Shown: positions 1 through 60,158, numbered from the whole stretch's first letter. The stretch is DNA of 63,977 nucleotides, filler included, from a bacterium (GCA_040757115.1; 18 parts of 18 records of this genome joined end to end with filler, not necessarily neighbours in it); one strand, 5' to 3'. Notes: generated by a model from the sequence alone, not told the origin. Translations and numbers: made by a program.

Positions 1-28
1 CGCGTATTGATTTCTCGCTCATTTGTAC

Positions 29-160
29 TCCTAACGATAAAGTTCAGGTGCGGCGGGGAGAATTACCACAAAAGTTTGATAGCAAGATAAAACTTTGAGA
101 GACCACAAAACTCTGACCACGGCACAGCCCCCCGCCGTCAACTGCAACACAGGGTTAGAC
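29..160 (-). repeat. attC-like recombination site (copy 1 of 3, 132 bp)
   Basis: Minus strand reads R'' GTCTAAC, L'' GTTGCAG ... L' CTGAAC, R' GTTAGGA with GGCGGGG/CCCCGCC inner stem; near-identical to 6496-6627 and similar to 8607-8738. Confidence 0.75.
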
Positions 161-287
161 AAAAGCTTTGACTCGCTGTCTTTTCCTTTTCCTCTGCCTC
201 ACCGAATTATTGTGCATTCCACATTCACGGCCAGAATAGTTCCTTTGAGGAAAATTACTTGGAAAGGACCTCTTGGCTCTCGTTTTA

Positions 288-316
288 ATTTTATCAATAA
301 TTAGCTATTATGTCAA
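288..316 (-). promoter_or_regulatory. sigma70 promoter pointing into attC copy 1
   Basis: TTGACA-17 bp-TAAAAT with extended -10 TG on the minus strand. Confidence 0.6.
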
Positions 317-416
317 GACTTTTATCCGAACATATGAATGAGTAACTAACCCCTTGAAATTGCTATATGTTTGGGGAAAGGGGAAGTCGTATCCAATTTT
401 ACTCTAAAGAAAAAAT

Positions 417-1712
417 TTAAAAAAGTGCTTGACTTTTATATGGTAGTCTGACCCTAACTCTCCTTTTCCCGTTTTTAAGGTGCGATCCCTCAACTCCATC
501 TTGCCCCTTTAGTCGCGGGATATCCTCCTGCTCTATGCTCTGTACCATCTCCTCAACGGTCGAAGATATAGCTCTCACGATGTGACTGAAAAGATCTTGT
601 CTGAAAGTACACCAGGGATTTCTTCCGTTGGAGTGACTCTGTGCAAACCAATTTTCAAACCGGCAACCGCCACCGCAAAGAAAGAACCATCTGCACGAGG
701 TGCATTTTGAGGATGGAAGAGAGAGATTTTTCCTGGTCGCCACAACCTTCGGTTGCATCAGTATTGTGTCGATCCCTTGTGACTTCACTTTACCCAGAGC
801 GAAATCAGGCACACCCAAGAAGCGAGCACAAGGATAGACAGTGCCATCGCGGTCAATACCTGTAATGATTCCGCAACCATGTTGAGCAAATGTACAGTCC
901 GAAGGACTACCCCCTAATAATCTCTCGATGATACCAACGAAAGTCCTCACAGGGATCCGTCCATCAAACTCGCCGTACCAAAGGTCAAATGCTCTTTTGA
1001 AGAAGTGCAGAAGTTGCCTGGAAGATGGAATGAAAGTGGAGGAGCCAAGTCGGTCACTACATATGCTAAAGTCAAACCCATACGGCGCCGCTTCGGTCAG
1101 AAAAGAGTAAACGGTCTCAGGATAATCAGCATTAATTTGAGATACAACACAGATAACTCCATATGGCAATCCAACATCTTGGCACAAGCGAAGCTTGTCC
1201 ATCACCACATCAAATGTCCCACGCCCGTTTGGGAATCTGCGGAGACGGTCATGAAATTCCCTTGGCCCGTCAAGGCTTGTGCTTAGTTGGAAGTCATAAT
1301 GCTTGAGCCATTTCGCCATTTTCTTGCTCAATAGCGTCAGATTTGTCTGGATGTGGTTGATTACTTTGGTCCCCTCCGTCGACGCAAAACGCTCTTGGAA
1401 CTTCGCCACTCTTGAGAAGAAATCCTGTCCAGCGAGCAAAGGTTCTCCGCCGTGCCATGTATACTGAACGACTCTGGCTGAGTTCACTGTGGTAGCGATT
1501 ACATTCGTCAAGATTTCCTCACTCATCACGTCAAAAGCGCGTGTACGATGACGGATATCTGCATGATAACAATAAGAGCACGCGAGATTGCAACACGCAC
1601 CAACAGGAGCTATAGTGAAAATGGCCTTCTCCGGCCTTTCATCCATATGACTTCTGTCAATAGGTTGCGAGCCTATCACGTGATGCATCATATTATTGGC
1701 TCTTGATTTCAT
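417..1712 (-). CDS. Radical SAM/SPASM-domain protein (anSME-like fold; probable peptide maturase); start uncertain
   Basis: CNLACSYC cluster motif, WHGGEPLL, SLDGP, SPASM cysteines (C..GC..YPC..CTSCRWFFLCGGGC..WC); overlaps an upstream small ORF; no sulfatase nearby. Confidence 0.9.
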   Translation of the reverse strand: MKSRANNMMHHVIGSQPIDRSHMDERPEKAIFTIAPVGACCNLACSYCYHADIRHRTRAFDVMSEEILTNVIATTVNSARVVQYTWHGGEPLLAGQDFFSRVAKFQERFASTEGTKVINHIQTNLTLLSKKMAKWLKHYDFQLSTSLDGPREFHDRLRRFPNGRGTFDVVMDKLRLCQDVGLPYGVICVVSQINADYPETVYSFLTEAAPYGFDFSICSDRLGSSTFIPSSRQLLHFFKRAFDLWYGEFDGRIPVRTFVGIIERLLGGSPSDCTFAQHGCGIITGIDRDGTVYPCARFLGVPDFALGKVKSQGIDTILMQPKVVATRKNLSLPSSKCTSCRWFFLCGGGCRFENWFAQSHSNGRNPWCTFRQDLFSHIVRAISSTVEEMVQSIEQEDIPRLKGQDGVEGSHLKNGKRRVRVRLPYKSQALF

Positions 1713-1896
1713 TCAGTTTTCGGACAAGCACCTTCAAGTCGTCCACAAGAGATACATTACCTTGCTTCACTGGCGTTGATTGAAAAGCGATATCTGTGCA
1801 TTTGACGTCACAGTGGTACGAGATCCGAGATTCCCTTTGATCTTTTACACGGCTAAGGATGAACTCAACTGCTACTTGGCCAGTAACTTTGCTCAT
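1693..1896 (-). CDS. Candidate RiPP precursor peptide, 67 aa
   Basis: Strong AGGAGG RBS before ATG at 1896; immediately upstream of the rSAM/SPASM gene; central SYHCDVKCTD motif. Confidence 0.6.
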   Translation of the reverse strand: MSKVTGQVAVEFILSRVKDQRESRISYHCDVKCTDIAFQSTPVKQGNVSLVDDLKVLVRKLNEIKSQ

Positions 1897-2075
1897 GTTC
1901 ACCTCCTTTTCTGTTTTGAATGCTCGCGGATAAAATTGAGTATTGATTTTATTGGTGTTCACACACCTCGAACCTTCTCTTCACCCCAAGACCTCCCCAA
2001 AATTCACTCCTTTTCTATAACCAATCCTTATTCCTATCATTGCTCATGATTTTCTAATCGGATAGGTCGAAAAGT

Positions 2076-2635
2076 TTAAATCATTTCTCGTTTTCTCTGT
2101 TCGACTAATGCTCTTGCTTTTTCAGGGTTTGTGCTATTTGATGACTCAGAGACTACTACGCCCTTTGGGCTGATATATCTTATCCACCAAATACCATCAC
2201 GCTCAAACACACATTCAAATTTTATCTGCATAATTAGAGATACACCAGCTTCTTTAAGTTTATGCACTAAATTTACAATCAGCGATTTTTCAACCACATC
2301 AACTTCAAGTGATTCAATTAAATTTGCTGATATGTTTACAATATCGCTTTTGTCATCAGATTTAATTACTTCATGCATTTTTGATGTTAAAACAATACCA
2401 TACTCATCTTCTATTATCATTTCAATGGCATATATAAGCTTGTCTTCTTTAATTCGGATCCCTTTAGTTGCGGGCTTAAGTAGAAGACGGAACAGATTTT
2501 AGTGGGGTATATCAGATATAATATGTCCAGTACCTCCTTATACTTTCTTCCCCCAGAAACTTCTATATATAACCCAATCATTTTTTTAGCATCTAATCCA
2601 TCAATATTGTCAAATAGGCTTCTCATCTTTACCAA
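2076..2635 (-). pseudogene. Hypothetical protein (about 186 aa) split by a probable 1-nt frameshift near 2497-2500
   Basis: ORFs 2417..2635 and 2076..2420; the downstream frame is open back to 2498, and adding one A in ACTAAAATC fuses them (..YPTKNLFRLLLKPATKG..). Confidence 0.55.
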
Positions 2636-2641
2636 ACACTC

Positions 2642-4063
2642 CTAACTCTTTTGGTCTAGCAATTGTTTGATTTCTTCTATAAGTTTTTCACTGTTAACTG
2701 TTTTCTGTCCTATCTGAGCTTTTAGCCATTCCTCCCGTTTTTCAATCTTTTCTGTTTCTTTTTTAAGCACTCTTAAGTCCTTGATTGTAACTTCGTTGTT
2801 TGAAAACTCCTCAGGACCAATAATAACAGCTATCGGAATTGAACATTTATCGGCATATTCAAGTTGTTTACCTATCTTTTGTTCTTTTCCAATATAAACC
2901 TCTGTATTTATGCCTTCTTCTCTGAGACGATGCCCAATTTTCATATATTCAACCATCTTTTCCTTTACCATAACCGTGATAAAAACGTTAGCCACAGAGG
3001 GTCTGCTTTCAGATGGAGCACATTTCTTCATCGCATCAAAAATACGGTCAACCCCTATAGACGCACCTGTGGCTGGAATTTCTTTACCGAGAAATTGTCC
3101 AATTAACTGGTCAAAACGCCCACCACCCATTACACTGCCAAACTCTCTTGCATCAAGAAGAATTGCTTCATAGACAGGTCCAGTATAATAGTCAAGCCCT
3201 CGTGCTATGCTCAAATCAATAGTAACTTTATCATCAGGAATTTCCAGAGCAGATAGATATTTATTAATTTCTTCTAACTCTCTTATTCCTTTATCTGCAG
3301 TAGAAACTCCTTTGAAAAACTCTGTCACTGAAGTTATAGCTTCATTTCGGGTATTCTGAGGAAGTAAAAGGAATTCTTCAATTTTCAATATCTGGTTCAC
3401 CTCAAGGTTAAGACCTTTTATCTCATCCCCTGAACTATCAATTCTCCCTGCCCCTAATTCTTGCTTTACTGCTTCGAGTCCTTGTTTTTCCAATTTATCA
3501 ATGACTTTAAATACAGAATGGCTCGGTTCTACAGGAATGTCTGCATATTTAATTAAACTATCTATAATCTTTCTATTGTTACATCTTATCCGAAAATCAG
3601 TTAATCCCAGAGCATTGAGGGAATCATACATAGCTAATATTATTTCTACATCAGCTATCATCTCACTCGTGCCAACAATATCAATATCAAATTGGATAAA
3701 TTCCCGAAATCGGCCAGGATCAGGTTTATCACATCTCCACACAGGTTGAACCTGATATCTTTTAAATGGCTTAGGAAGTTGTGGATATTGAGCAATAACT
3801 CGTGAAAGAGGAACTGTTAAATCAAATCTTAGACCGACCTCATTTCCATCTTTATCAGTAAAGGTATACATTTGCTTATTAATTTCTTCTCCTCCAAGAC
3901 CTAGTAAAGTTTCTTTGTATTCAAGAGCAGGAGTTGCAAGTGGAACAAAGCCATATAATTCATATACTTTTTTAATAGTGGAGAGTATTTGGTCCCGCAC
4001 ACGCATTTCTTCAGGCATATAATCACGAAAACCCCGTAACGTTTTAATAACTCTACTACTCAT
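2642..4063 (-). CDS. hisS: Histidine--tRNA ligase, Caulobacter/Rhizobiales-like subtype
   Basis: RGFRDY, LRFDLTVP, GRFREFIQFDID, ARGLDYYTG, GGGRFD, GASIGVDR; insert IDKLEKQGLEAVKQELGAGRIDSSGD; C-terminal IKDL..EEW..Q; GGAGG RBS. Confidence 0.95.
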   Translation of the reverse strand: MSSRVIKTLRGFRDYMPEEMRVRDQILSTIKKVYELYGFVPLATPALEYKETLLGLGGEEINKQMYTFTDKDGNEVGLRFDLTVPLSRVIAQYPQLPKPFKRYQVQPVWRCDKPDPGRFREFIQFDIDIVGTSEMIADVEIILAMYDSLNALGLTDFRIRCNNRKIIDSLIKYADIPVEPSHSVFKVIDKLEKQGLEAVKQELGAGRIDSSGDEIKGLNLEVNQILKIEEFLLLPQNTRNEAITSVTEFFKGVSTADKGIRELEEINKYLSALEIPDDKVTIDLSIARGLDYYTGPVYEAILLDAREFGSVMGGGRFDQLIGQFLGKEIPATGASIGVDRIFDAMKKCAPSESRPSVANVFITVMVKEKMVEYMKIGHRLREEGINTEVYIGKEQKIGKQLEYADKCSIPIAVIIGPEEFSNNEVTIKDLRVLKKETEKIEKREEWLKAQIGQKTVNSEKLIEEIKQLLDQKS

Positions 4064-4082
4064 TTTTTTACCTCCAAAAATT

Positions 4083-4159
4083 TGGTACCGGCGATGGGAT
4101 TCGAACCCATACCTTCTGATCCACAGTCAGACACTCTAACCAGTTGGAGCTACGCCGGC
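4083..4159 (-). tRNA. tRNA-His(GUG), 77 nt, encoded CCA, no G-1, G1:U72, A73
   Basis: Cloverleaf GCCGGCG-TA-GCTC..GAGT-G-TCTGA CTGTGGA TCAGA-AGGT-ATGGG TTCGAAT CCCAT-CGCCGGT-A-CCA; position -1 is T. Confidence 0.95.
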
Positions 4160-4214
4160 ATTTACTGCCAACTCACCATATTACATTCTATTTTGTATCA
4201 CTTTAAGTACTTTT

Positions 4215-5102
4215 TTAAGGTACGAACTTGTTCAGTGAATACTCAATAAAGTTAAAAGCCCAACCTCTTGTTTTTAGACTCGAAATTAAATTAGAAACAT
4301 CTTTACCATTAACAACGACATCAACTATATACCACCCTTTTTCTGTAATAAATGGTAAAATAACTTGTGGATATTCTTGGGGAAGTATCCTTCGAACTTT
4401 CTCTATATTTTCATTTTTAACAACCATTTTTAGTCCCACCATTTCCTCAGCACGAAGAGCGGCATTAAGAAAAAGAATTATATTATCTATTTTTTTCTTT
4501 TTCCATTCATTCCTCCATGAATCTTTGTTTACAATAACCTGTACATTTGATTCAAGAATTGTTTCAATTTCAATGAGATTATTAGCTCTTAATGATGCAC
4601 CTGTCTCTGTAACCTCCACAATGGCATCTGCAAGATAAGGTGGTTTTACTTCCGTTGCACCCCATGAGAAATCTACCGTTGCCTCAACGCCTTTAGTCTT
4701 AAGGTATCGTTTTGTGAACTCAACAAGTTCAGTAGCAATACGTTTGCCTTGGATGTCCTTTATTGACTTTATATCTGAACTCGATGGAACTGCAATAACC
4801 CATCTCACGGACTTGAAACCTTCCTTTGCATATTTCAAATCTGCAACTGTTTCTACATCTACATTTTGTTCAAGAACCCAGTCATAACCTGTAAGTCCAC
4901 AATCAAGATGGCCATCCTCAACGTATTTTGGCATCTCCTGTGCTCTAACAAGCATTGATTCTATCTCAGGATCATCAAAAGTAGGGTAATAGGAACGATT
5001 AGATATATTTATATGATAACCTGCCTTTTTGAATAGCCTTAATGTCGACTCCTGAAGACTTCCCTTAGGAAGACCAATCTTAAGTACATTGTTACTCTCC
5101 AT
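4215..5102 (-). CDS. hisG: ATP phosphoribosyltransferase, long form
   Basis: [50 protein letters not shown]-terminal ACT-like domain present but divergent. Confidence 0.93.
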
Positions 5103-5141
5103 ACATATTCACTCTCCACAAAGATAATTTTAATTTCAAAT

Positions 5142-5171
5142 ATAATAGCATATAGAATATCTAAAAGTCAA
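5142..5171 (-). promoter_or_regulatory. Putative sigma70 promoter for hisG-tRNA-hisS
   Basis: TTGACT-18 bp-TATTAT with TGn extended -10, about 40 bp upstream of hisG. Confidence 0.45.
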
Positions 5172-5204
5172 GAACTTTTTTCAGAAATTTCCCTACAACG
5201 ACAC

Positions 5205-6344
5205 TTAGCAACTTCTCATACAATATATTGTAGCCCATTCATATTTATAGTGCTGTATTCCTATAGCTTGAATAAGGTTATACAATTTAACCGCAACAGG
5301 CATGCCATGAAAATGTCCTACACTGATAATATTGATAAATTTATTATCTTCGGTATTTGGGAAAATTAAAGGATTATCCGTAACACTGTTTGTCTCAACT
5401 TCAAGAGCTCTACGGGTTTCCTCTATTAAATCATAACATGTACCCAATATTTGAGCGGCACATCGAATGTTATAAGGATCCTGAACCTCACCATCAATAT
5501 CAAAATCAGAATGAGCTTTGCGAATCGGAGAATCTTTCATCAGTTCCCAAACCCATTTGGAAACTTTCAATGCCCCTCGATGAGGTCTCAATTCATGAAA
5601 CTCAGGATTAAAACAGGTATCAGCCCCAAGCATAACCTGTGTAGAAATGGCTGTTATAACCGTTGCACTTTTCAGGATGTCTATCATCTTAAAATAAGCT
5701 AATATACCAAAGGCGGTGGAATATTGTACACCGTTATTTAATGCTAATCCTTCTTTCATTTCTAAAGAAATTGGAGTGAATACATTATTTGCTTTTTTTC
5801 GGTCTTTGTCTGATCCAACAAAAACATCGCCTTCGCCTATCATTGCCAGTGCAATATGAGACATGGGAGCAAGATCGCCACTGGCACCTACAGAACCGAA
5901 TTTAGGAACTACTGGAGTAATTTTTTTGTTCAGCATCTCAATAAGTTTTTTTATAACTTCGGGACGGACTCCGCTGTACCCTTGTGATAAGGATATGACA
6001 CGTAAAAACATCGCAGCTCTAACAACTTCTATAGGTGTAACATCTCCAACGCCACATGAATGGGAACGAATAAGATTATTCTGAAGTTCAGAATACCTTT
6101 GTTGAGGAACCGGAATATCAACATTATGCCCGAATCCGCGATTAAATCCATAGGCAGGTTTTGGATTCTTTATTATTTCATCTATTACATCTTTTCGTCT
6201 TTTTTCAATAATATCAAGTGCTTTGGAATCTATCTCAATTTCACTTCCATACGCTACTCGCCAAACATCATCTAATGAAACCTTTTCTAATATCCTCTTA
6301 TCTCTTACTTCTTCCGCTATAGCTTTAATATATACTTTATCCAT
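5205..6344 (-). CDS. hutH: MIO-dependent aromatic amino acid ammonia-lyase (histidine ammonia-lyase-like), C-terminally truncated
   Basis: GSVGASGDLAP (MIO), LIRSH, KEGLALNNG, RPHRG, VQDPY, NSVTDNP; 379 aa versus about 500 typical; GAGGAGG RBS. Confidence 0.7.
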   Translation of the reverse strand: MDKVYIKAIAEEVRDKRILEKVSLDDVWRVAYGSEIEIDSKALDIIEKRRKDVIDEIIKNPKPAYGFNRGFGHNVDIPVPQQRYSELQNNLIRSHSCGVGDVTPIEVVRAAMFLRVISLSQGYSGVRPEVIKKLIEMLNKKITPVVPKFGSVGASGDLAPMSHIALAMIGEGDVFVGSDKDRKKANNVFTPISLEMKEGLALNNGVQYSTAFGILAYFKMIDILKSATVITAISTQVMLGADTCFNPEFHELRPHRGALKVSKWVWELMKDSPIRKAHSDFDIDGEVQDPYNIRCAAQILGTCYDLIEETRRALEVETNSVTDNPLIFPNTEDNKFINIISVGHFHGMPVAVKLYNLIQAIGIQHYKYEWATIYCMRSC

Positions 6345-6362
6345 AATTATCCTCCTCTCGTA

Positions 6363-6455
6363 GTTGGGTAGGATTCTGGTGCGGTTTGGTTTTATGCCCT
6401 CGTTTCCAGAGTCCCCCTAAAATTCCGTGCATTAGGTTTTCTCCAACACGGCTTT
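6363..6455 (-). ncRNA. Group II intron 3' relic (domains V-VI only)
   Basis: AAGCCGTGTTGGAGAAAACCTAATGCACGGAATTTTAGGGGG (DV) followed by a CTGG..CCAG hairpin ending CCTACCCAAC. Confidence 0.65.
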
Positions 6456-6495
6456 AAGTAATAGGCATTTATCTATTCAATCAATGTCTTTCTCA

Positions 6496-6627
6496 TCCTA
6501 ACGATAGAGTTCAGGTGCGGCGGGGAGAATTACCACAAAAGTTTGATAGCAAGATAAAACTTTGAGAGACTACAAAACTCTGTCCACGGTACAGTCCCCC
6601 GCCGTCAACTGCAACGCAGGGTTAGAC
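6496..6627 (-). repeat. attC-like site (copy 2); identity with copy 1 extends about 70 bp further to about 6697
   Basis: GTCTAAC..GTTGCAG..CTGAAC..GTTAGGA on the minus strand, 132 bp. Confidence 0.75.
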
Positions 6628-6838
6628 AAAAGCTTTGATTCGCTGTCTTTTCCTTTTCCTCTGCCTTACCGAATTATTGTGCATTCCACATTTACGGTTT
6701 GGTATAATACTTTTATATTTCAAAGATATTAAAAAAGATTTATAAAAAGTCATCCAGACTACCTGATATATGATATAATAGAAAAGGGTTGTCTTTTTAG
6801 ACATTGCCCCAAACATTTATCTAAAGGAGGTAGTCCGG

Positions 6839-7996
6839 ATGAAAAAGATTCATAACAAACAAAAAAGGAAAAAAGTCAAAACCCACATTCAGAAACCTAA
6901 AGGCAGCAGGTTTACTGAAGAGGTCAAACAACTTGAACCTCAAAATGTGGGCGTTATTCCCATCGATGTCCATAAGGATAAACATCAGATTCTTATTTGT
7001 GATTACTACGGTAAAATCCTTAAGGACGAGTTCTCTATACCTAACACCTTAACCGGTGTTCAGGTTCTCTTAACTCATATCTGTGAGGTAATAGACAAAT
7101 TTAATCTCAAAAAGGTCTATGCGGTTATGGAATATACCGGCAAATATCATCAGAATTTGGCTAATAAATTACGACAACACAAAATCTCTGTTGTTTTTGT
7201 TCTCCCCAATAGCACTTACCATCTCCGTCAAGGACAGATGAATTGGGCTAAAACAGACTCTATTGATTTGTGTGCCATTGGCCAAGCATTTGTTAATGGT
7301 TGGGTATCCTCTTGCCCTCCTCTTGATGATTTCTATCAAAACTGGCAAACACTAACCCGAGCCAGACGCGATGAGGTTAATCTTCAAACTCAAGCCAAAA
7401 ACAGAATTACTGACCTCTTACACGACTTAATGCCAGGATGCCAAGAATTGTTTGCTAACTTCTGGGAACATAATGCTCCACCTGTCCTTCTATCCCTTGC
7501 TCATTCTCCAGAACAACTCCTTAACCTCAATCGCATCACCTTAATTCAACAACTCTCAAAAGCAAAAGTCCAAAAACCAGCAGAGCTCGTTGACAAACTC
7601 CATATCTGGGCTAAAAACTCTCTTGGTACATCCTCAAATCCCTCAGCCAAAATCCAGCAGCTCAAAATCCTTTGGCAACACTTCCTTAACTATCAGAACA
7701 ATATTCGTTCCTATAATATCTCCATTGCCCAATATCTGTCTCAAAATCCAGCTCTCCTCTTCCTCTCCATCCCCTGGGTAAATGTCCCCAGTGCCAGTGA
7801 ATATGCCTCTGAAATAGGACCATTTGACAACTTTACCTCTCCTAAACAAATTACCGCTTATCTTGGTCTGGCTCCTAAAAAGTTTCAGACAGGTAAGATT
7901 TCCTTTGAAAATGGCCCTATTACCAGAAAGGGTAAAAATCGTGGTCGAGCTGACCCCTACTCCCCTCCTACTCCTCACACAGATTTCAAGGTTTAA
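6839..7996 (+). mobile_element. IS110-family transposase, probably C-terminally truncated
   Basis: IDVHKD, MEYTGKY, KTDSID (DEDD RuvC domain); SIPWVN, AYLGLAP..QTG..ITRKG, then an abrupt end. Confidence 0.85.
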
Positions 7997-8002
7997 TTCC
8001 TA

Positions 8003-8311
8003 TTATGCTCCAGATTGAACACGGCGAGCAGATAACCAGCTATTAAGTGACTTTTGGCTCTCGCCACTGTGCCGTCCCGCTATCAATCCATCAATACCAA
8101 TATGTTCGTCAAGGTCAGGCCACTCAATTGCATATCCATCTCCCAATAATTGCCAGTTTTGCCGCTCACTTGGTGAAGCATAGAATAATCGTGGATACCA
8201 GGCAAGTGGGACAACAATACGCCGTCCATCTGTCAGGTCCACTACCAATTCCTCATCTGTTACTGTGACTCCTATCGCTATAGGTTCTACTTCAAGCACC
8301 AAAGTATTCAT
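8003..8311 (-). CDS. DUF2442 family protein (putative TA component)
   Basis: LTDGRRIVVPLAWYPRL, IEWPDLDEHI; GGAGG RBS; overlaps the DUF4160 gene. Confidence 0.85.
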   Translation of the reverse strand: MNTLVLEVEPIAIGVTVTDEELVVDLTDGRRIVVPLAWYPRLFYASPSERQNWQLLGDGYAIEWPDLDEHIGIDGLIAGRHSGESQKSLNSWLSARRVQSGA

Positions 8312-8528
8312 ACCACGCCTCCAAAAGAGTTGATTCATGCTCTACTACAAGACGAGCAATCTGATTTAGTTCGTGTCCAGGAAAACCCCGGTTTTTCACC
8401 AAGGAAACAGGAGTTATCCAAAACTTGGCGATTCGACGGTCCCGCTTTACATGAATATGGGGTGGTTCACCCTTATCGGAACTAAAGAAAACAAATCTAT
8501 ATGGGCCATCTTCGAGAACAGTTGGCAT
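8292..8528 (-). CDS. DUF4160 family protein (putative TA component)
   Basis: MPTVL..GPYRFVFFS..EPPHIHV..AKFW..EAWYEYFG. Confidence 0.85.
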   Translation of the reverse strand: MPTVLEDGPYRFVFFSSDKGEPPHIHVKRDRRIAKFWITPVSLVKNRGFPGHELNQIARLVVEHESTLLEAWYEYFGA

Positions 8529-8606
8529 AATCGCCTCTCCTTATATCTCTTGTATAATAAGTTTTACTGGTTAATTTCCAAGTGATAACAGGTTGTCACT
8601 ACTATG

Positions 8607-8738
8607 GGCTAACGATAAAGTTCAGGTGCGGCGGGGAGGATTGCCACTAAACTTTGTAAGCAAGACAAAACTTTGATAAACCACAAACTTTTGAAAAACA
8701 GTTAGCCCCCCGCCGTCCACTGCAACGCCTGGTTAGGT
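8607..8738 (-). repeat. attC-like site (copy 3, 132 bp)
   Basis: ACCTAAC..GTTGCAG..CTGAAC..GTTAGCC on the minus strand; same length and stem as copies 1-2. Confidence 0.75.
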
Positions 8739-8848
8739 ATAATACTTCTCACTGCAATTCTCTTTTCTTCCCTTGCCGGAGAACTATTGTCCATTCCATA
8801 ATCAAGTTTAACCCTAAATCTCTCTCATTTATTCTAACAACTCTTGCT

Positions 8849-10111
8849 TCAGTCGCAGTGAACGAAACGAACAGTTGTCTGCAAGTGTTTGCTATCTGAT
8901 TTTGTAGATTCCTTGTTGGTTTCATATTTTATTAATTTACTTAATCTATCTTTAGTTGCTTTTTCTATCTTAGAAGCATCAGTGTCATTAAATTTAATTT
9001 TATAATGTTCAGCAATTTTCTTTAGAATAGAGTTATCCATTTCTTTAAAAACCTTATTTGTTTTAATAGCATATAAGACATAAAGTTTTTTGTTTTGCTG
9101 GACATCTTCTATGTTGATAAGGGGGGATAAGTTCCCATACAACCACGCATTTTCAGGATTGAACAGATTTTTCAGTGCATAAAGATAGGAATATTTATAA
9201 AGATTCTCCAATGTCACCACAATTCCGTTGGGATGCTCTCTTGTCATAAAAGAGGCATTTTTCTTTAAAGAATTAATATCTCTAAATGAGTAATAATACA
9301 AACCAATAGGAGATTTCTGAACATCATTTTTGCGCGGAGGATATTTATTGATATATCCGTCAGTAGTTTTAAAATCGGATAAAACAAATGTGTTGGGACT
9401 GCCTAATATATTAAATCTGAAATTCCTGATATAATCAAATGTCATTCCATCTGAACATTTTTCATAAAGAGATACTAATATCGGAAATTTTCCTATTCCT
9501 GTTCCATGGAACAATGCGCTGGAAAATATTTCGCCTTTTATTAGTTTGTAGTTATCCTTAAAATCTCGCAATCTCTTAAAATTAGTCTCTTTTATTAAAT
9601 ATGATAGCGGATGCAGCACACAAACAATATCAGCATTGAGTTTATGATATGATTTTAAGAATGAAACCCCTATATCTCTATCGTATAAGTCTTCATCGCA
9701 TATATTTTGCCCCTTCTCGCCGTTTCTGAATTCTGATGTTGTATCGTTGTAAGGAGGATTGCCTACCATTATTAAAAATGCAGAGGAAGAAATTAAATAT
9801 TTATCTCTATTAACTCCCTTTAACGAATTTGTCTGAAAAATATTATGTTGATTAAAATGTTGCTTGAGAAACTGGCAGGCTTTTAAATCACAATCCGCTA
9901 TCCGATAATTATAATTTTTGAGACCAAATATAAAAGCCCCACACCCCCCGGCACTATCAAAAACAATACACTTTTTTCCTATGTCCCTTAAGTAAGGGAT
10001 TATAAATTCATGAACCTGTTTGACAAGGACATCAGGAGTATAGTAACTGCCTAATTGAATTCTTTCATTTTTTGTTAGGTGTTCTGCTAAATGTGCTTGC
10101 ATAATTATCAC
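8849..10111 (-). CDS. N6-adenine DNA methyltransferase
   Basis: GSYYTP, FDSAGGCGAF (motif I), GNPPY (motif IV). Confidence 0.85.
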   Translation of the reverse strand: MIIMQAHLAEHLTKNERIQLGSYYTPDVLVKQVHEFIIPYLRDIGKKCIVFDSAGGCGAFIFGLKNYNYRIADCDLKACQFLKQHFNQHNIFQTNSLKGVNRDKYLISSSAFLIMVGNPPYNDTTSEFRNGEKGQNICDEDLYDRDIGVSFLKSYHKLNADIVCVLHPLSYLIKETNFKRLRDFKDNYKLIKGEIFSSALFHGTGIGKFPILVSLYEKCSDGMTFDYIRNFRFNILGSPNTFVLSDFKTTDGYINKYPPRKNDVQKSPIGLYYYSFRDINSLKKNASFMTREHPNGIVVTLENLYKYSYLYALKNLFNPENAWLYGNLSPLINIEDVQQNKKLYVLYAIKTNKVFKEMDNSILKKIAEHYKIKFNDTDASKIEKATKDRLSKLIKYETNKESTKSDSKHLQTTVRFVHCD

Positions 10112-10857
10112 CTGCTGATAATCTCAAGAAGTATTTTAAGGATTTCAACAACATCATGATTGTGCCGTTTGGATGCCATTCCAAAAACCTTCATCATACA
10201 TATAAGATTTGAGATATTGGCATTGCTGATTACATATTCAAGTTTATCAGTAGGAACAGATGATTTACCAAGGAGGATTGAATAATTCCTAAATGATTTT
10301 AATGGTATGCAAAAATAAACCATTGGTTGAACACCAGTAGCATATTGTTGTTTTTGAATAGATATTTCTACTTGTGTTCCATCTAAAGTTTCAATCATAA
10401 ACAGTGTCGGCAAATTAATACTCGTTTCTTCAAAATTTATTCCATTTATAGTTAACTGTGAATGGTGTTCAACGGTTATGGCTTTTTCATCTATAAAACT
10501 TTTGTAATTACTTATTTCCTTAAGCAGGTTTTGGATTTCTTCTATAGAGACAAATTTTAATTCCATAGCCTTATAAAATATTTCCGATAATTCATAAGGA
10601 TATTTTGTTTTTCCGTTACTTCCAATAAAATGCTTGTTTGTTAATTTTGTTCCTTTTTTGCCTGCTTCAACATCGTTAATAGGGACATCATAACCTATTT
10701 GCCATTCCAAGTATGTTTGGTCATCAAAAGTCCCTTCTCTTGTCGAAAAGGTTTCACCAAAATCTAATCTATTTTGTCTTTTCTTAAATCTGAATTTGCC
10801 GGCATTAGTAGCGGGGATAGTTAATAAAATATTGTTTTCTTTAATTGCATAATCCAT
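10108..10857 (-). CDS. R.PabI-family restriction enzyme (HALFPIPE DNA glycosylase)
   Basis: GKFRFK, FSTR, YLEWQIGYD, YELSE, QYATGVQPM motifs; lies between two MTases. Confidence 0.8.
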   Translation of the reverse strand: MDYAIKENNILLTIPATNAGKFRFKKRQNRLDFGETFSTREGTFDDQTYLEWQIGYDVPINDVEAGKKGTKLTNKHFIGSNGKTKYPYELSEIFYKAMELKFVSIEEIQNLLKEISNYKSFIDEKAITVEHHSQLTINGINFEETSINLPTLFMIETLDGTQVEISIQKQQYATGVQPMVYFCIPLKSFRNYSILLGKSSVPTDKLEYVISNANISNLICMMKVFGMASKRHNHDVVEILKILLEIISR

Positions 10858-10868
10858 TTTTTATCTCC

Positions 10869-11591
10869 CTATTTTATGGTATTTCTTGATTCTTTTATAG
10901 CTGTTCTCAATGCCCATTGGATTCTTTCAAGAGCAATTTTATAATATTTTTCTTCAATTTCAAAACCAATAAATCTTCTATTAAGCTGAAGACAGGCTAC
11001 GGCAGTGCTACCGCTTCCTATGAAAGGATCCAAAATTAAGTCATTCTCTTTTGTGAACATTTTTAATATCTCTTTTATAAAGTGTTTGGGTTTCGGTGTC
11101 GGATGGTCTATATATCCTTCATCAGGTTCAACCATTTTTCCTGGGGTGTCAACAAATATATCTTTATTCCAGCGAATAATTTTAGGTTTTCCTTTTTTAA
11201 AGATAAAACAAGACATAAATTTAGTCAGGCCGATTGGAGATTTAACCCTTCCTTCAGGACAATACAAGATAATCTGCCAGAAATAATTAAATGGATTGTT
11301 CTCAAATAGTCGTGGCAAAAACTTTGTGCTAAAGAATGTAATAAAAAAACTATTGTCTTTTAGAATCCTGTTGCATTCTGAAAGGACATTATAAAAAAGA
11401 CTTAAATCAGCATCGCCTCTGATAGCATCTTTTCTTAATCCATATGGTGGGTCAGTAAGCACGACATCTATCGAATTGTTTGGAATTAATCTTATCAGTT
11501 CCAAACAATTTCCACAAATTATGTTATCAATAAAATCTTCGGGATATTTAAGGTCAAATTTAATTATATTGCTGTTTTTTACCATTTTCAT
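10869..11591 (-). CDS. Beta-class N4/N6 DNA methyltransferase
   Basis: TDPPY, HPTPKP, LDPFIGSGST. Confidence 0.9.
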   Translation of the reverse strand: MKMVKNSNIIKFDLKYPEDFIDNIICGNCLELIRLIPNNSIDVVLTDPPYGLRKDAIRGDADLSLFYNVLSECNRILKDNSFFITFFSTKFLPRLFENNPFNYFWQIILYCPEGRVKSPIGLTKFMSCFIFKKGKPKIIRWNKDIFVDTPGKMVEPDEGYIDHPTPKPKHFIKEILKMFTKENDLILDPFIGSGSTAVACLQLNRRFIGFEIEEKYYKIALERIQWALRTAIKESRNTIK

Positions 11592-11635
11592 TTTAGTTCT
11601 TAATCCTTCACATTTGTAGCCTAACCATGGATTAC

Positions 11636-11723
11636 ATTCGACCCTTTCAGGGTCGAGTTTTGCGGGCGTTTATTTCCGTAGATTGCATCTACGGTTATTT
11701 AAAATTCGACGCTTTCAGCGTCA
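11636..11723. repeat. REP-like palindrome pair
   Basis: ATTCGACCCTTTCAGGGTCGA and ATTCGACGCTTTCAGCGTC. Confidence 0.5.
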
Positions 11724-11953
11724 ATAACCTAAAACCTAACCGCACAGGTCGCAATTTTTCTAATCTTCTAATCTCTAATTCACTAATTCACTAATTCGCT
11801 CATAAATCAATCGGCTCTATGTCAAATTTCGGTTAATAAGTGCTATAAGCGTTCAAGTAGTGTAAGAAAAGGAGAGTGAAAAATGAGGGGTGAAGAATGA
11901 GCAGTAACCATCTGAGTGTTGACACCTGATGGCTGAACGCTTACAACAATTTA

Positions 11954-13420
11954 TTATCCTTTAACCACACCAAGTGGTCTTAATTTAGCTACTCGTCTGG
12001 CGATGCCGGCATTATGAAGGACACTAACTACCTGTGTAACATCCTTATATGCCTCAGGCATTTCTTCGGCTAATGTTTCTCTTCCAGCGGACCGAACCAA
12101 TATTCCTTTAATTTTTAATTCTTCATCGATTGCCCTGCCGCGAGCCTGGTTTATGGCGGCGGTTCTTGAAAGCACTCTGCCGGCACCATGACAGGCAGTG
12201 CCAAATGCCTCTTCCATACCCAGTGCAGTCCCAATTAAAACATAAGAAGCTGTCCCCATATCCCCGGGCACAATCACTGGTTGACCTACACATTTGTAAT
12301 CTTCAGGTAAGACAGGATGATTAGCCGGAAATGCCCGTGTTGCACCTTTGCGGTGGACACAAAGTTTAATCTTTTTGCCAGCAACATTATGTTCCTCAAT
12401 TTTACCAATATTATGTGCAACATCATAGACTAATTCCATGCCTAATTCGGATAGTTTCATCCCCAATACCTGCTTAAATACTTCTCTGGTTAAGTGCATC
12501 AAGCATTGTCTATTTGCCCAGGCGTAATTTGCGGCCGCGGACATTGCTCCAAAATAAGCTTTACCTTCCGGCGAATTAAATGGAGCACATGCCAGCTGCC
12601 TATCGGGTAAAAATATCCCATATTTTCTTACCGCGTCACCCATTGAGTGTAAATAATCTTCACAGACCTGGTAACCCAGTCCTCTTGACCCGGAATGAAT
12701 CATAGTGGTAATTTGTCCTTCTTGTAGTCCAAATACCTTTGCCACTGCCGAGTCATAAATTTTCTCTACTACCTGAACCTCTAAAAAATGATTGCCAGAA
12801 CCTAATGTGCCCAGTTGTGCCAGCCCTCGTTCCATTGCTTTATGACTAATCCTATCCGGAGCCGCCATTGCCAGACATCCTTCTTCTTCGGTATGAGATA
12901 AATCCTCATTTATCCCATATCCTTTTGAAACAGCCCATTTTGACCCATTAATTAAAACATCTACCTCTTCTTTAGGTGAGAGTTTAATCATTCCTTTTGA
13001 GCCTAATCCGGATGGTATGTTATGAAATAAACTATTAATTAATATTGAAAGTTTAGCCTGAATATCTATCAGAGAGAGATTAGTTCGGACCAATCTTACC
13101 CCACAATTAATATCCGAGCCAACTCCACCTGGTGAGATAACACCGCCCTGCTCAATATCTGTTGCGGCAACACCGCCAATTGGCAAGCCATAACCCCAAT
13201 GAATATCAGGCATAGCTAATGAGTATTTAACTATACCTGGCAAACAGGCAACATTTGCAACCTGCACTGGCGTATTATCTTTTTTAATATGGCTAATCAT
13301 CGAGTCATCTGCATATATTAATCCTGGAACTTGCATCTCTCGCCGATAACTTTTCGGGATTCGATAACGATAATCATCAATTTTTTCTAAGGGTCCTTGA
13401 TAACCAACTCCTTGTGACAT
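11954..13420 (-). CDS. rtcB: RNA-splicing/repair ligase RtcB
   Basis: MPDIHWGYG, DINCGVR, GSGNHF, HSGSRG, HRKGAT, HGAGR, EEMPEAYKD. Confidence 0.95.
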   Translation of the reverse strand: MSQGVGYQGPLEKIDDYRYRIPKSYRREMQVPGLIYADDSMISHIKKDNTPVQVANVACLPGIVKYSLAMPDIHWGYGLPIGGVAATDIEQGGVISPGGVGSDINCGVRLVRTNLSLIDIQAKLSILINSLFHNIPSGLGSKGMIKLSPKEEVDVLINGSKWAVSKGYGINEDLSHTEEEGCLAMAAPDRISHKAMERGLAQLGTLGSGNHFLEVQVVEKIYDSAVAKVFGLQEGQITTMIHSGSRGLGYQVCEDYLHSMGDAVRKYGIFLPDRQLACAPFNSPEGKAYFGAMSAAANYAWANRQCLMHLTREVFKQVLGMKLSELGMELVYDVAHNIGKIEEHNVAGKKIKLCVHRKGATRAFPANHPVLPEDYKCVGQPVIVPGDMGTASYVLIGTALGMEEAFGTACHGAGRVLSRTAAINQARGRAIDEELKIKGILVRSAGRETLAEEMPEAYKDVTQVVSVLHNAGIARRVAKLRPLGVVKG

Positions 13421-13645
13421 CTTTATGTTTACCTCCTTTTATCAGAAGAACGCTCTCGGATAAAATTAAGCGGTAATTTTATTAGCCTTCGCACACCGCA
13501 AATTTTTCCTTCACCCCCACTTTTTAAGTAGAGAGTAGAAAGTAGAGAGTAGAGAGTAGGAATTTTGTTTTATTTACTTCCTATTTCCCGTTTCTTACTT
13601 CCTATTTTTATCCGAGAGGCTTCCAGAATAACTGCCTTCTATCTT

Positions 13646-14713
13646 CTACCATGTTTGCTGATTAGATTTAATATAATTTAACCATCGACCTGTCAATTCT
13701 GGCAGGCTTTTAATCTCTGGTGAATAGGCATTTTCTAATGCCTTATTTAACTCCATACCTTCCTTTAAATTCTTGCAAAAGGCATAAAGTTTTCCTCTTC
13801 CATGCACATCTATCAGGTAAGTTACGATACTTAAAGATTCGGTGTACCACAGATGGATAATCTCAATTTTATTCTGTTGTGAGATGTCAATCGCGGTAAG
13901 TTGGTCAGCAGTGAAATATTTTCCTCCTCTTATCTGGTCAAGTATCTCTTGATAATTATTTATGTATGTTTTGCAAAACTTATTCTCTTCATACACGGCT
14001 AATCCCTCGGCAAGCCATTTAGGGAAATTGGGGCTAAATTCCATAAAGTCAGCGAAGATTAAATGAGTTAATTCATGAGGAATAACGGCATCAATTAGGT
14101 TTTCGGCATCTTTATGGGAGTAAATTGAGCGGGTTTTAAATTCACTGTATCCAGATGACCAGGTAGCTTTACCTGTCGCCTTAAAATAATCCTCCGGGGT
14201 ATCAAAAACATAAATAGTAACCTTATCCTTTAACCAGAATCCAGCATCACCAAATCCTAAATCTGTTGGTATATCGTAATAGATTTCTACTTTAGCTACA
14301 ATATCATCCGCTAAAATTGCATCACTGGTATAAATGATAAAGTGGGATGTCTCTCTTTTAACAGCTAATTGATATGCTGGTTGTGTAGTAGCAGTACTAA
14401 ATTCAGAATTTATTTCCGCAGAAGATAACCTGTCAACTGGCACTTTAGTTCTTCTATACATTTCTTCTCGTTTCGTAACGCTATTAATTGCCCAGCAGGC
14501 GACGACAATAATCACGATTAAAGATAACCAGACATCTAATCCTATCCATCTTTTCCATCCTCTTCCCTCACGATGCCTATGCATAATCATATATCTTTCT
14601 TCTTCAGGACTTACATCAGCCTTTTTAGATGATTCCTTTCGAAATACCGCATGGCATAGATTACAAAATAATGCTTCATCTGGATTGTTATAACCACATT
14701 TTGGACATTGCAT
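13646..14713 (-). CDS. Zinc-ribbon + TM + peptidase MA-like metallohydrolase
   Basis: N-terminal CPKC..FCNLC, one TM helix, HELTH..WLAEGLA. Confidence 0.75.
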   Translation of the reverse strand: MQCPKCGYNNPDEALFCNLCHAVFRKESSKKADVSPEEERYMIMHRHREGRGWKRWIGLDVWLSLIVIIVVACWAINSVTKREEMYRRTKVPVDRLSSAEINSEFSTATTQPAYQLAVKRETSHFIIYTSDAILADDIVAKVEIYYDIPTDLGFGDAGFWLKDKVTIYVFDTPEDYFKATGKATWSSGYSEFKTRSIYSHKDAENLIDAVIPHELTHLIFADFMEFSPNFPKWLAEGLAVYEENKFCKTYINNYQEILDQIRGGKYFTADQLTAIDISQQNKIEIIHLWYTESLSIVTYLIDVHGRGKLYAFCKNLKEGMELNKALENAYSPEIKSLPELTGRWLNYIKSNQQTW

Positions 14714-19763: not shown

Positions 19764-19790
19764 ATGTTTATTGAGAAAGTTATAAATATT

Positions 19791-20027
19791 GTAACCGTTC
19801 AGGCTATATATCAAAAGTGTAAGAAAGGGGATAAGGAGATAAGAGTGATATGGAGATAAGATAATAGAAATAGATTGAAATTTATAGAAATAGGTAGAAA
19901 TTGATTGTGGAAAACAACAAATTTCCATAAATTTCTATTAGTTTCTATTAATTTCAATTTTTTTAATAATATCTCCCTATCTCCTTAATCTCCACATCTC
20001 CTTTTGTTACACCACCTGAACGCTTAC
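19791..20027. mobile_element. 237-bp high-copy MITE with GTAACCGTTCAG/CTGAACGCTTAC termini
   Basis: Full copy here; near-identical partial copies at contig ends 24356-24480, 27093-27214, 29380-29501, 29602-29671, 48385-48504, 48605-48724, 62131-62334. Confidence 0.8.
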
Positions 20028-20131
20028 AAGTTCACATTAGTATTGTTGATAGTTGATGGTTGATAGTCTATGAAACTATCAACTATAAACTATCAACCCT
20101 GTTGCTATATCTGTTCTATGAGAAATTTTCG

Positions 20132-21179: not shown

Positions 21180-21465
21180 GTAACCGTTCAGCCACAGAGG
21201 CACAGAGTTCACAGAGAATTAAGGGAATTAGTCACAAATGGACACGAATTAACCTGTGACATTCGATAAATGTAGTGCGAACCTTTAGGTTTGCCTTCCG
21301 GTTTGCCAGAAGCGAGGCTAAAACCTCGCACTACAAATCTTTTTGTTGTTCAAGGAGATTCGGGTTCATTCTCGTTAGATAGTAAAACATCTAACGGGAT
21401 TCATTCGTGATTATATATTCCCTCTGTGTTCTCTGTGACTCTGTGGCTATATCCTGAACGGTTAC
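21180..21465. mobile_element. GTAA-ended MITE with 8-bp target duplication GGGCACAA
   Basis: GGGCACAA-GTAACCGTTCAG..CTGAACGGTTAC-GGGCACAA; related copy at 45469-45947. Confidence 0.8.
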
Positions 21466-28001: not shown

Positions 28002-28559
28002 ATGGTAACTACTTACCATTCACCAGTTACCAATTCCTAAATAGGGTTCTGCAAAATAGGATTTGGGAGAGACAACAAATAAATATCAAATATCAAAAAG
28101 CAAAATTACAAATCAAATTTCAAAATTGGTAAGTTGCCAAAGAATAACGCTGAAAGGAAAGAGATAATTTTACTGAACTTTGGCAAATTTGCAAATTCGC
28201 TGAAAAACTTAAAACTAAAAGCGTAAAACCAAAAACCGTTGATAGTTTGTAGTTGATAGTTTATAGTAGATAGTTGAAGAACTATAGACTATAAACTATA
28301 AACCATAAACTATAAACGAGTTTTGCATTTTGCTCTTTGAAGGAAATTGATAAAAATAGAGGTTTTAAATACCCGCTTAAAAACTACAGTTTCTTAGTTT
28401 TGCAGAACTCTAATTCCTAAATTAGGGTTTCATGAAATTAAGAGCAAATAATCGGTTAATTGGTAATTGATTAAATATCCTCGTCGTGAGCTCAGCCGAA
28501 CGGTATTTAATTACCATTCACCAGTTACCATTTACCAAATGAAAGGAGGTTTATCAAAA

Positions 28560-31754: not shown

Positions 31755-32077
31755 AAGGGATTTCGGGACTCGGGGCTCGGGGCTCGGGATTCGGGAATAA
31801 AAGAATTCCCTAATCCCGAGTCCCGAACCCTGATTTTCAGGGGAAACGGTCATGAGCCAAGGCTCACAAAGGGCAATGAAAATGGGAGAAGGACAACCCC
31901 CTAACCCCCTTTATTAAGGGGGAATATGTGTTCTAAACCAGAGGATACGAGTCTGTGGATACTATACTAATTCGCTANNNNNNNNNNNNNNNNNNNNNNN
32001 NNNNNNNNNNNNNNNNNNNNNTTAATTAATTAANNNNNNNNNNNNNNNNNNNNNNNNNNNNNNNNNNNNNNNNNNNN

Positions 32078-32210
32078 TGCCTTCTGTCCTCTGCCCTCTG
32101 CCCTCTGCTTTCTGCCCTCTGCCTTCTGTCCTCTGCCTTCTGTCCTCTGCCTTCTGACCTCTGCCTTTTGTCCTCTGCCTTCTGTCCTCTGCCCTCTGCC
32201 CTCTGTCCTC
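32078..32210. repeat. Heptamer tandem repeat (TGCCYTC/TGTCCTC)n
   Basis: About 19 imperfect 7-bp units at the contig end. Confidence 0.8.
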
Positions 32211-32217
32211 TGTGAAC

Positions 32218-58061: not shown

Positions 58062-58294
58062 TTTCTAAAACCTCCAATAGAGTTCTGCAAAACTAAGAAA
58101 CTGTAGTTTTTAAGCGGGTATTTAAAACCTCTATTTTTATCAATTTCCTCCAAAGAGCAAAATGCAAAACTCGTTTATAGTTTATGGTTTATAGTTTATA
58201 GTCTATAGTCTATAGTCCTTCAACTATCAACTATCAACTATCTACGGTTTCTCCCCCAAATCCTATTTTGCAGAACCCTAGTAAACAGTTACCC

Positions 58295-59725: not shown

Positions 59726-59919
59726 AATTCTTCCTCCCTTTTAGTTATTTTGACATAATGTCATTATGACCTATAATACATAATATCAGATTTAGATAAA
59801 ATAGTCAACTGTTTTTTTTNNNNNNNNNNNNNNNNNNNNNNNNNNNNNNNNNNNNNNNNNNNNTTAATTAATTAANNNNNNNNNNNNNNNNNNNNNNNNN
59901 NNNNNNNNNNNNNNNNNNN

Positions 59920-60112
59920 TTTATGGTTTATGGTTTATGGTTTATAGTTTATGGTTTATGGTTTATGGTTTATAGTTTATAGTTTATGGTTTATGGTTTA
60001 TGGTTTATAGTTTATGGTTTATAGTTTATAGTTTATGGTCTATAATCAACTATCAACTATCAACTATCAACTATAAACTATCAACTATAAACTATCAACT
60101 ATAAACTATCAA
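59920..60112. repeat. Heptamer array (TTTATRG)n followed by the inverted (CTATMAA)n
   Basis: Direct inspection; forms a long imperfect hairpin. Confidence 0.8.
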
Positions 60113-60158
60113 CGTTAAGTTTTTTAGAGAATTTGCAAATTTGCCAAAGTTCAGTATT

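Follow-up and report, generated by a model that had tools for sequence, protein, structure and literature searches.

The window analysed here is the whole 63,977-nt stretch obtained by joining the 18 records of assembly GCA_040757115.1, the genome of an uncultivated bacterium with close relatives that NCBI labels as Nitrospirota. The island with which this report is concerned sits within the first, real contig of 24,480 nt; the rest of the window (24481-63977) is made up of contigs of about 2.2-2.5 kb in falling order of length, linked by 17 junctions of the form N44-TTAATTAATTAA-N44. The island is a row of six protein genes and one tRNA gene, all on the minus strand between two attC copies. 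In the direction of the genes these are a lyase of the HAL/PAL/TAL family, the ATP phosphoribosyltransferase gene hisG, tRNA-His, hisS (encoding histidyl-tRNA synthetase, HisRS), a gene split by a frameshift, a gene for a 67-residue peptide and one for a radical S-adenosylmethionine (SAM)/SPASM enzyme (Table 1). The first-pass annotation had placed all of these parts where we find them, between two copies of a repeat that are 94% identical. Its parts list holds as to the presence of the lyase and the peptide, but the lyase gene has lost its 3' part, the 'unknown gene' proves to be one gene with a frameshift, and the peptide contains one histidine in 67 residues. In an independent assembly (Logan) of run X1, which probably represents the source sample, a single 5,070-nt contig covers positions 1458-6527 with 0 differences and at a depth of ~327, compared with 298-339 for the flanking single-copy DNA; this identity and the closeness of the depth to that of its neighbours indicate that the unit is physically contiguous, including a step in GC content near position 2000. 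The nearest genome examined, G001, serves as a proxy for the window's own genome and shares 94-98% DNA identity with the right part of the contig (window 11.7-22.2 kb, core genome).

Table 1. Features of the island and its surroundings, in window coordinates.
Feature	Position	Strand	Remarks
attC closing the unit	29..230	-	covariance model R1, 178.8 bits; core 29-160
Promoter-like site TTGACA-17-TAAAAT	288..316	-	11/12 consensus; consensus match only; faces attC and next cassette
Radical SAM/SPASM enzyme, anSME/DynA-like group	417..1691	-	GC 45%
67-aa open reading frame (ORF), possible precursor peptide	1693..1896	-	strong ribosome-binding site (RBS); ends 1 nt before the radical SAM gene start
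5' leader of peptide gene	1895-1987	-	74% identical over 93 nt to rtcB leader 13425-13517
Gene split by frameshift into 72-aa and 114-aa ORFs	2076..2626	-	overlapping ORFs together 2076-2635; relative P0362
hisS, intact HisRS	2642..4063	-	473 aa; TIGR00442 391.9 bits (cut-off 286.75)
tRNA-His(GUG)	4083..4159	-	ARAGORN; Rfam tRNA model 65.1 bits
hisG, intact long-form ATP phosphoribosyltransferase	4215..5102	-	diverged C-terminal regulatory domain
Promoter-like site TTGACT-18-TATTAT with TG	5142..5171	-	40 nt upstream of hisG; consensus match only
HAL/PAL/TAL-family lyase, 3'-truncated	5205..6344	-	379 aa; homology ends near residue 357
attC opening the unit	6496..6697	-	177 bits; R'' 6627-6621, R' 6502-6496
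IS110-family transposase	6839..7996	+	neighbouring cassette space
Third, diverged attC of the same family	8597..8808	-	148 bits

Judged by their sequences, tRNA-His and HisRS of the island bear the marks of a pair that is independent of the G at position -1 (G-1) of the tRNA. In the tRNA, position -1 is T, G1 pairs with U72, the base at 73 is A and the CCA end is encoded; the synthetase has KDGN at the G-1 pocket (RGGR in Thermus) and KPD at the motif-2 site, where the canonical sequence is PQ, its Gln being kept in the HisRS of G001. The same acceptor end is described for the Caulobacter/RRCH alphaproteobacteria including most SAR11, in which tRNA-His likewise lacks G at -1 and combines G1-U72 with A73 (PMC3064791, PMC3937112). 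Caulobacter HisRS recognizes its tRNA by U72, A73 and the anticodon, derives no benefit from G-1 and forms with this tRNA a pair orthogonal to that of E. coli (PMC3064791). The conserved Gly-Gly that forms the G-1 pocket is replaced in Caulobacter HisRS by two Asp (PMC4357726), and loss of the motif IIb Gln is a mark of the G-1-less clade (PMC3937112). Pocket and Gln are lost in the island enzyme as well, which differs from the Caulobacter/RRCH enzymes in having Asp and not Gly at the motif-2 residue, and Asp-Gly and not Asp-Asp in the pocket. One HisRS from Pelagibacterales is 41% identical to that of the island, and a tRNA-His with the same acceptor end lies 51 nt upstream of its gene.

The island HisRS is 29% identical to the HisRS of G001 and is closer to solved HisRS of the eukaryote type (225-237 bits) than to those of E. 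coli and Thermus (~122 bits). The anticodon of the island tRNA-His and of the G001-type tRNA-His is the same GUG, in a shared CTGTGG stretch. A Thg1 homologue was found in none of five genomes (G001 and four genomes with the G-1-less HisRS type), and an Rfam search of window 1-14000 at E up to 1 returned nothing but the tRNA. What the first-pass annotation had called a dedicated tRNA-His/HisRS set can be sharpened to a G-1-independent pair that a host-type enzyme should not serve; by analogy with Caulobacter, it would be orthogonal to the canonical pair of the host.

G001 contains a single hisS above the cut-off, one hisG (58% identical to that of the island) and a tRNA-His that has the G at -1 together with C73, as does that of the relative G008. 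No match to window 231-6488 exists in G001 except two pieces of 71-72 nt; the island is absent from this genome and is accessory. Since G001 matches the contig core at 94-98% and is without the island, the window's genome most likely has a G001-like canonical set and the island. The partner of the island HisRS in a maximum-likelihood tree is a metagenome protein 86% identical to it, and the two lie within a fully supported clade with the enzymes of G009 and G010, both from the family of G001, and of G027 from the same phylum; the island tRNA is nearly the same as that of G027. Within the family of G001 the types are divided, G009 and G010 having only the G-1-less HisRS and G001 and G008 only the canonical one. 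One tRNA-His, which is G-1-less, was found in G009, and none in G010.

By their boxes and predicted fold, the repeats that bound the unit are attC sites, part of a large chromosomal array of the integron type. Between the copies at 22-230 and 6489-6697 identity is 94% across 209 nt; the third, diverged copy lies at 8600-8808. When 25 distinct copies are aligned, the conserved core is seen to begin with GTCTAAC (R'') and similarity to break off immediately behind GTTAG (R'); GTCTAAC agrees with the R'' consensus RYYYAAC, and GTTAGGA matches six of the seven positions of GTTRRRY (in the closing site R'' GTCTAAC lies at 160-154 and R' GTTAGGA at 35-29). A predicted consensus hairpin joins both ends of the attC through 21 pairs, four of them with compensatory double changes. 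In the two flanking sites the strand opposite the genes is predicted to fold more stably than the gene strand (-19 versus -16.9 and -23.2 versus -19.5 kcal/mol), and in the third (8600) it is less stable (-18.1 versus -20.1 kcal/mol). The attC core of ~132 nt is accompanied by a 70-nt extension (161-230; 6628-6697) directly upstream of R''. This extension occurs only in a subset of cassettes (cf. G001 loci L060-L065), and other copies begin at R''.

With the attC covariance model only three copies were found in the contig, none of them inside the island. G001 carries at least 56 copies, the attC repeat making up 56 of the 58 matches of this genome to window 1-7000; many stand at contig ends, and many in same-orientation arrays with a spacing of 0.3-4.5 kb. 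In the source run the attC bins reach ~170x the single-copy depth when summed over all contigs, which gives a rough copy count. By the integron crossover convention, G|TT, the unit extends from 6501 to 35 and measures 6,467 nt, with its genes on the minus strand. The G001 contigs C220 and C611 contain abutting gene halves (model positions 25-142 and 144-313), the best NCBIfam match of which is the integron integrase (125 and 208 bits, compared with 29 and 95 bits for XerC); no attC was found on these contigs by the covariance model. To call the unit transferable, as the first-pass annotation did, is reasonable, as it is an attC-bounded unit of the integron type that the nearest related genome lacks.

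Relatives of the island HisRS with 40-73% identity were collected from 37 reference-genome loci and 40 metagenome loci, two sets that share some contigs; the genome loci are labelled Nitrospirota, WOR-3, Coatesbacteria, Zixibacteria, Acidobacteriota, Planctomycetota, Ignavibacteriales, Cloacimonadota and Pelagibacterales. A tRNA-His gene is present in 18 of the 37 genome loci (in 15 within 300 nt upstream on the same strand) and in 24 of the 40 metagenome loci (in 22 within 300 nt upstream on the same strand); these counts are lower bounds because several of the loci without the tRNA start at hisS. In many phyla the tRNA-His gene is closely coupled to a hisS that follows it. G-1 together with C73 occurs in none of these 42 tRNA-His, A73 in 39 and U72 in 34. 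The motif-2 Gln is absent from every relative at least 40% identical to the island enzyme and is kept only in the three most distant ones (at most 39%) and the G001 enzyme. The G-1-less type is found in loci of Acidobacteriota, Planctomycetota, Zixibacteria, WOR-3, Coatesbacteria and Ignavibacteriales, whereas PMC3064791 and PMC3937112 treat it as peculiar to one alphaproteobacterial clade. In five genomes with this type its gene is the sole hisS above the cut-off.

The order of the island core, hisG-tRNA-His-hisS, is found on the chromosomes of G018 and G026, both from the same phylum, while hisS-hisG occurs in G025 and hisG-tRNA-His in G027. A long HAL-family gene stands near hisS in 10 of the 37 and 7 of the 40 loci, mostly directly downstream and on the same strand, and one hisS-adjacent HAL copy passes the hutH cut-off. 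Lyases of ~577-595 aa directly following a G-1-less hisS were noted, in several phyla, at L026, L036-L038, L042, L045, L053, L056, L058, L113, L116, L118, L123, L126 and L131. The 'histidine theme' of the island, which the first-pass annotation had taken for a combination without precedent, is not a new operon, because tRNA-His-hisS, hisS-HAL and hisG-tRNA-His-hisS recur as chromosomal neighbourhoods of this HisRS clade. In the chromosomal hisG-tRNA-His-hisS and tRNA-His-hisS-HAL neighbourhoods the genes are sole copies in an ordinary context, and the lyase is of full length and follows hisS; the island lyase, by contrast, lies upstream and is truncated, and is 30-37% identical to most chromosomal ones. 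Its identity to the hisS-adjacent HALs is up to 40% over a full-length match, and 52% in one 104-residue stretch.

HisG of the island scores above the cut-offs of both TIGR00070 (185.2 bits; cut-off 75.75) and TIGR03455 (50.3 bits; cut-off 40.05) and is of full length in the alignment. It is 53-60% identical to HisG across the phylum and nearest to that of G027, which has the same diverged C-terminal domain. The regulatory domain reads LPQEYPQV where relatives have LPALKKPT, and the Thr that is mutated in feedback-resistant Corynebacterium HisG (PMC10464499) seems to be lost, as far as motif mapping alone can place it; these changes are only suggestive of an enzyme that is less sensitive to histidine or deregulated.

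The unit as a whole is a mosaic. The lyase matches only profile positions 7-342 of 506 (342.7 bits, below the hutH cut-off of 539) and the first 334 of 466 Pfam positions, keeps the Ala-Ser-Gly motif of the methylidene-imidazolone (MIO) group, and has relatives of 580-600 aa that are at most 65% identical at a query cover of ~90%. Because the profile match is partial and the relatives are longer, we regard it as a 3'-truncated remnant, cut at ~357 of ~585 residues. No HAL relative was found in 24 genomes of the phylum, nor in G001. The split gene has an intact relative of 175 aa, P0362, to the first 57 residues of which the 72-aa ORF aligns (55%) and to residues 64-173 of which the 114-aa ORF aligns (45%); the reading frame shifts between the two, which makes them one gene of the 175-aa type. 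Only three relatives of it occur among 1.84 billion representatives. An integrase-arm-like fold proposed by a protein atlas for the C-terminus of the 114-aa ORF was rejected, being below the atlas thresholds and without profile support.

The peptide contains one His and two Cys. The radical SAM enzyme is below every NCBIfam cut-off (best scores 236, cut-off 349, and 221.6, cut-off 450), and its relatives are few, the best 47% identical and all others at most 34%; a metagenome scan gave no relative. No match for the small ORFs or the peptide was found in PADLOC, PHROGs or relaxed Pfam, and the peptide is without family or homologue; in PADLOC the radical SAM enzyme has only weak matches to viperin models (35 and 25 bits). 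The GC content of the peptide/radical SAM block is 45-46%, compared with 34-37% for 2001-7000 and 36% for the rest of the unit taken together, the step lying near 2000. The leader that the peptide gene shares with rtcB, which may be a common operator, includes an AT-rich inverted repeat just before the RBS and has no Rfam match. The ORF at 11954-13420, considered as a second radical SAM gene, is RtcB itself and shares the 5' leader only. The truncated lyase, the frameshifted gene and the peptide/radical SAM pair are most likely passengers or relics of other origin and not the steps of one pathway, and the unit is decaying in part, as two of its protein genes are broken.

It is proposed, with a probability of about 0.6, that the island is an integron-captured mosaic with an intact hisG/tRNA-His/hisS core, and that this core is a second, self-sufficient, G-1-independent histidine-charging module beside the canonical set of the cell. 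The core is probably self-promoted: the promoter-like site at 5142-5171 would give one transcript of hisG, tRNA and hisS, from which the tRNA would be cut out. The island tRNA would be made without the extra 5' G and would carry U72 and A73, and the island HisRS, by analogy with the Caulobacter enzyme, would read U72, A73 and the anticodon. Each of the two enzymes, that of the island and that of the host, should then charge only its own tRNA, and the cell would gain a second, independent route to His-tRNA-His as well as an extra first enzyme of histidine synthesis. Because neither enzyme should charge the tRNA of the other well, tRNA and enzyme would travel together. Expression of the island genes, and any benefit to the cell, are likewise assumed in this proposal. 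The island may be an aid to the cell, a neutral store or a first step to replacing the canonical pair.

Several points weigh against this proposal. Two of the six protein genes are broken, and the two HisRS types occur together in none of 60 related genomes, so that the two-pair state would be unprecedented in that sample; the canonical pair of the window's own genome leans on G001 as a proxy. The change at the pocket is partial, with Asp-Gly in place of the Asp-Asp of Caulobacter, and the canonical HisRS of G001 itself has Gly-Asn there, for which reason the pocket site alone is not a clean discriminator. The expected orthogonality draws on one studied system, that of Caulobacter. There is no integrase on the 24,480-nt contig of the window, and a multi-gene cassette of 6.5 kb exceeds the spacings of 0.36-4.5 kb seen in the G001 arrays; an insertion may have enlarged what was once a smaller cassette.

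The broken genes would be in keeping with inert captured DNA, that is, a fragment of a relative's chromosome trapped in the array, silent and decaying, which of the alternatives is the one that fares best but which we still consider unlikely. Neither an integrase nor a Pc promoter is present on the contig, a promoter scan gave 19 sites compared with 19.6 in shuffled sequences and is thus overall not above chance, and integron arrays of this kind store unexpressed cassettes. What argues for a functional core instead is that hisG, the tRNA and hisS are of full length and have kept all family motifs while their neighbours decayed, and that a strong promoter-like site lies just upstream of hisG.

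If the core is functional, it could also be the only histidine-decoding set of the genome, the canonical pair having already given way to the G-1-less one, with attC flanks that are incidental. G009 and G010 of the same family do live with the G-1-less type alone, and the intact hisG, tRNA and hisS as well as a depth equal to that of the flanks would suit a resident set. G001, however, with its 94-98% identity to the contig core, has a complete canonical set and no island DNA, and the unit lies in a variable attC array beside an IS110 element and a restriction-modification system that is also absent from G001; we regard replacement as improbable.

Less probable still is a pathway suggested by the first-pass annotation, a histidine-centred natural product in which HisG boosts the histidine supply and a peptide that the radical SAM enzyme matures is served by a dedicated His-tRNA-His or by a self-resistant HisRS. 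Such a pathway would account for co-oriented genes in one attC-bounded unit, for a small ORF directly before a SPASM enzyme and for the diverged regulatory domain of HisG. It fits poorly with a truncated lyase, a peptide with one His in 67 residues, a step in GC content from 45% to 34-37% near 2000 and a frameshifted gene between the two blocks, and with a HisRS that is an ordinary member of a housekeeping clade. Moreover, homologues of the peptide, the radical SAM enzyme and the small ORFs are present at none of the 37 genome, 40 metagenome and 12 related-genome loci that encode HisRS relatives (0 of 89). The other role suggested there, a conflict or backup module in which the second pair sustains histidine decoding when a phage or toxin hits the host tRNA-His or HisRS, is just as improbable: the acceptor end does differ from that of the host tRNA and a restriction-modification system is found in the neighbouring cassettes, but the anticodon is the same GUG as the host's, the small ORFs and the peptide have no match in PADLOC and the radical SAM enzyme only its weak viperin-model matches, and the pair is plain housekeeping in many genomes.

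The surroundings of the unit were also inspected. A DUF2442 gene (8003-8338, minus strand) and the IS110 transposase lie in the interval that separates the second attC from the third; attC sites are known targets of some IS110 relatives. The restriction-modification set, just past the last attC (8849-11591, minus strand) and absent from G001, consists of a type II methyltransferase, an R.Pab1-like endonuclease and an N6/N4 methylase. In G001 (C423:16498-16713, compared with window 222-383) a 71-nt stretch like window 384-454 directly abuts the attC extension; the window therefore has ~160 extra bases at this place, and these hold the site at 316-288, the best of the promoter-like sites seen in this region. 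Two dispersed repeat families (~245 nt, 19785-20029; ~285 nt, 21180-21465), with tens of G001 copies at 91-100% identity, look like miniature inverted-repeat transposable elements. Tandem heptanucleotide repeats (TTTATGG, CTATCAA, TCTGCCC and others) were noted in the small contigs at 28239-28325, 32064-32231, 58153-58246 and 59906-60114. Apparent repeats spanning the small contigs (family D1) were discarded as linker artefacts of the N44-TTAATTAATTAA-N44 joins.

The components of the island are of known kinds: attC arrays, a G-1-less pair, a long HisG, a HAL remnant and a SPASM enzyme. Sedentary chromosomal integron arrays, and attC clusters without an integrase, are known from Vibrio and Treponema, and the array described here resembles them in its similar attC sites of the same orientation, its R''/R' boxes and imperfect hairpin, its strain-variable content and the integron integrase of its lineage. 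It differs from them in an attC core of ~132 nt with a conserved 70-nt extension and in having no integrase on the contig, and the island, at 6.5 kb and with seven genes including a tRNA and an aminoacyl-tRNA synthetase, differs from the typical cassette of one small promoterless gene. Self-resistance copies of synthetases, such as mupirocin-resistant IleRS, stand beside antibiotic clusters or on plasmids; they act on the tRNA of the host and are not accompanied by a tRNA gene. Like these, the island HisRS would be a second, divergent, horizontally acquired enzyme for an amino acid already served, but it brings its own, differently marked tRNA and has no linked inhibitor pathway. From the Caulobacter/RRCH system the island is set apart by being an attC-bounded accessory unit in a non-proteobacterial lineage, the nearest genome of which is canonical.

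A partial search of the literature found no description of G-1-less pairs outside Alphaproteobacteria or on mobile elements, and a partial search of the integron literature found no mention of a tRNA synthetase. Compared with the literature consulted, the new points are the presence of the pair in an attC-bounded accessory unit while the nearest genome is canonical, and the occurrence of the G-1-less pair and its linkage across many phyla.

The rules of tRNA identity are thought to be nearly frozen, because enzyme and tRNA must change together, and the G-1 rule of tRNA-His, to which one bacterial exception is known, is the standard example. The island points to a possible route by which such a rule may be switched, namely co-transfer of enzyme and tRNA, coexistence of two orthogonal pairs and loss of one of them; we offer this route because a matched G-1-less pair lies in an array of the mobile type, the nearest genome is canonical and the family holds both types. 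In a broader form of the idea, which is tentative and for which we would give somewhat less than even odds, G-1-less tRNA-His/hisS would be a portable 'identity module' that moves between phyla as one unit and repeatedly displaces the canonical G-1 system, the window would represent a transitional state with two pairs, and the alphaproteobacterial system, for which a single origin has been assumed, would be one acquisition from a wider pool. That one cell could hold both orthogonal pairs was considered possible in PMC3064791, and the window's genome may be a natural case; the significance of the finding leans mainly on this two-pair state. Islands of this kind may also supply genetic-code engineering with naturally occurring orthogonal HisRS/tRNA pairs, and integron-type arrays can store genes of the translation machinery and not only small adaptive cassettes.

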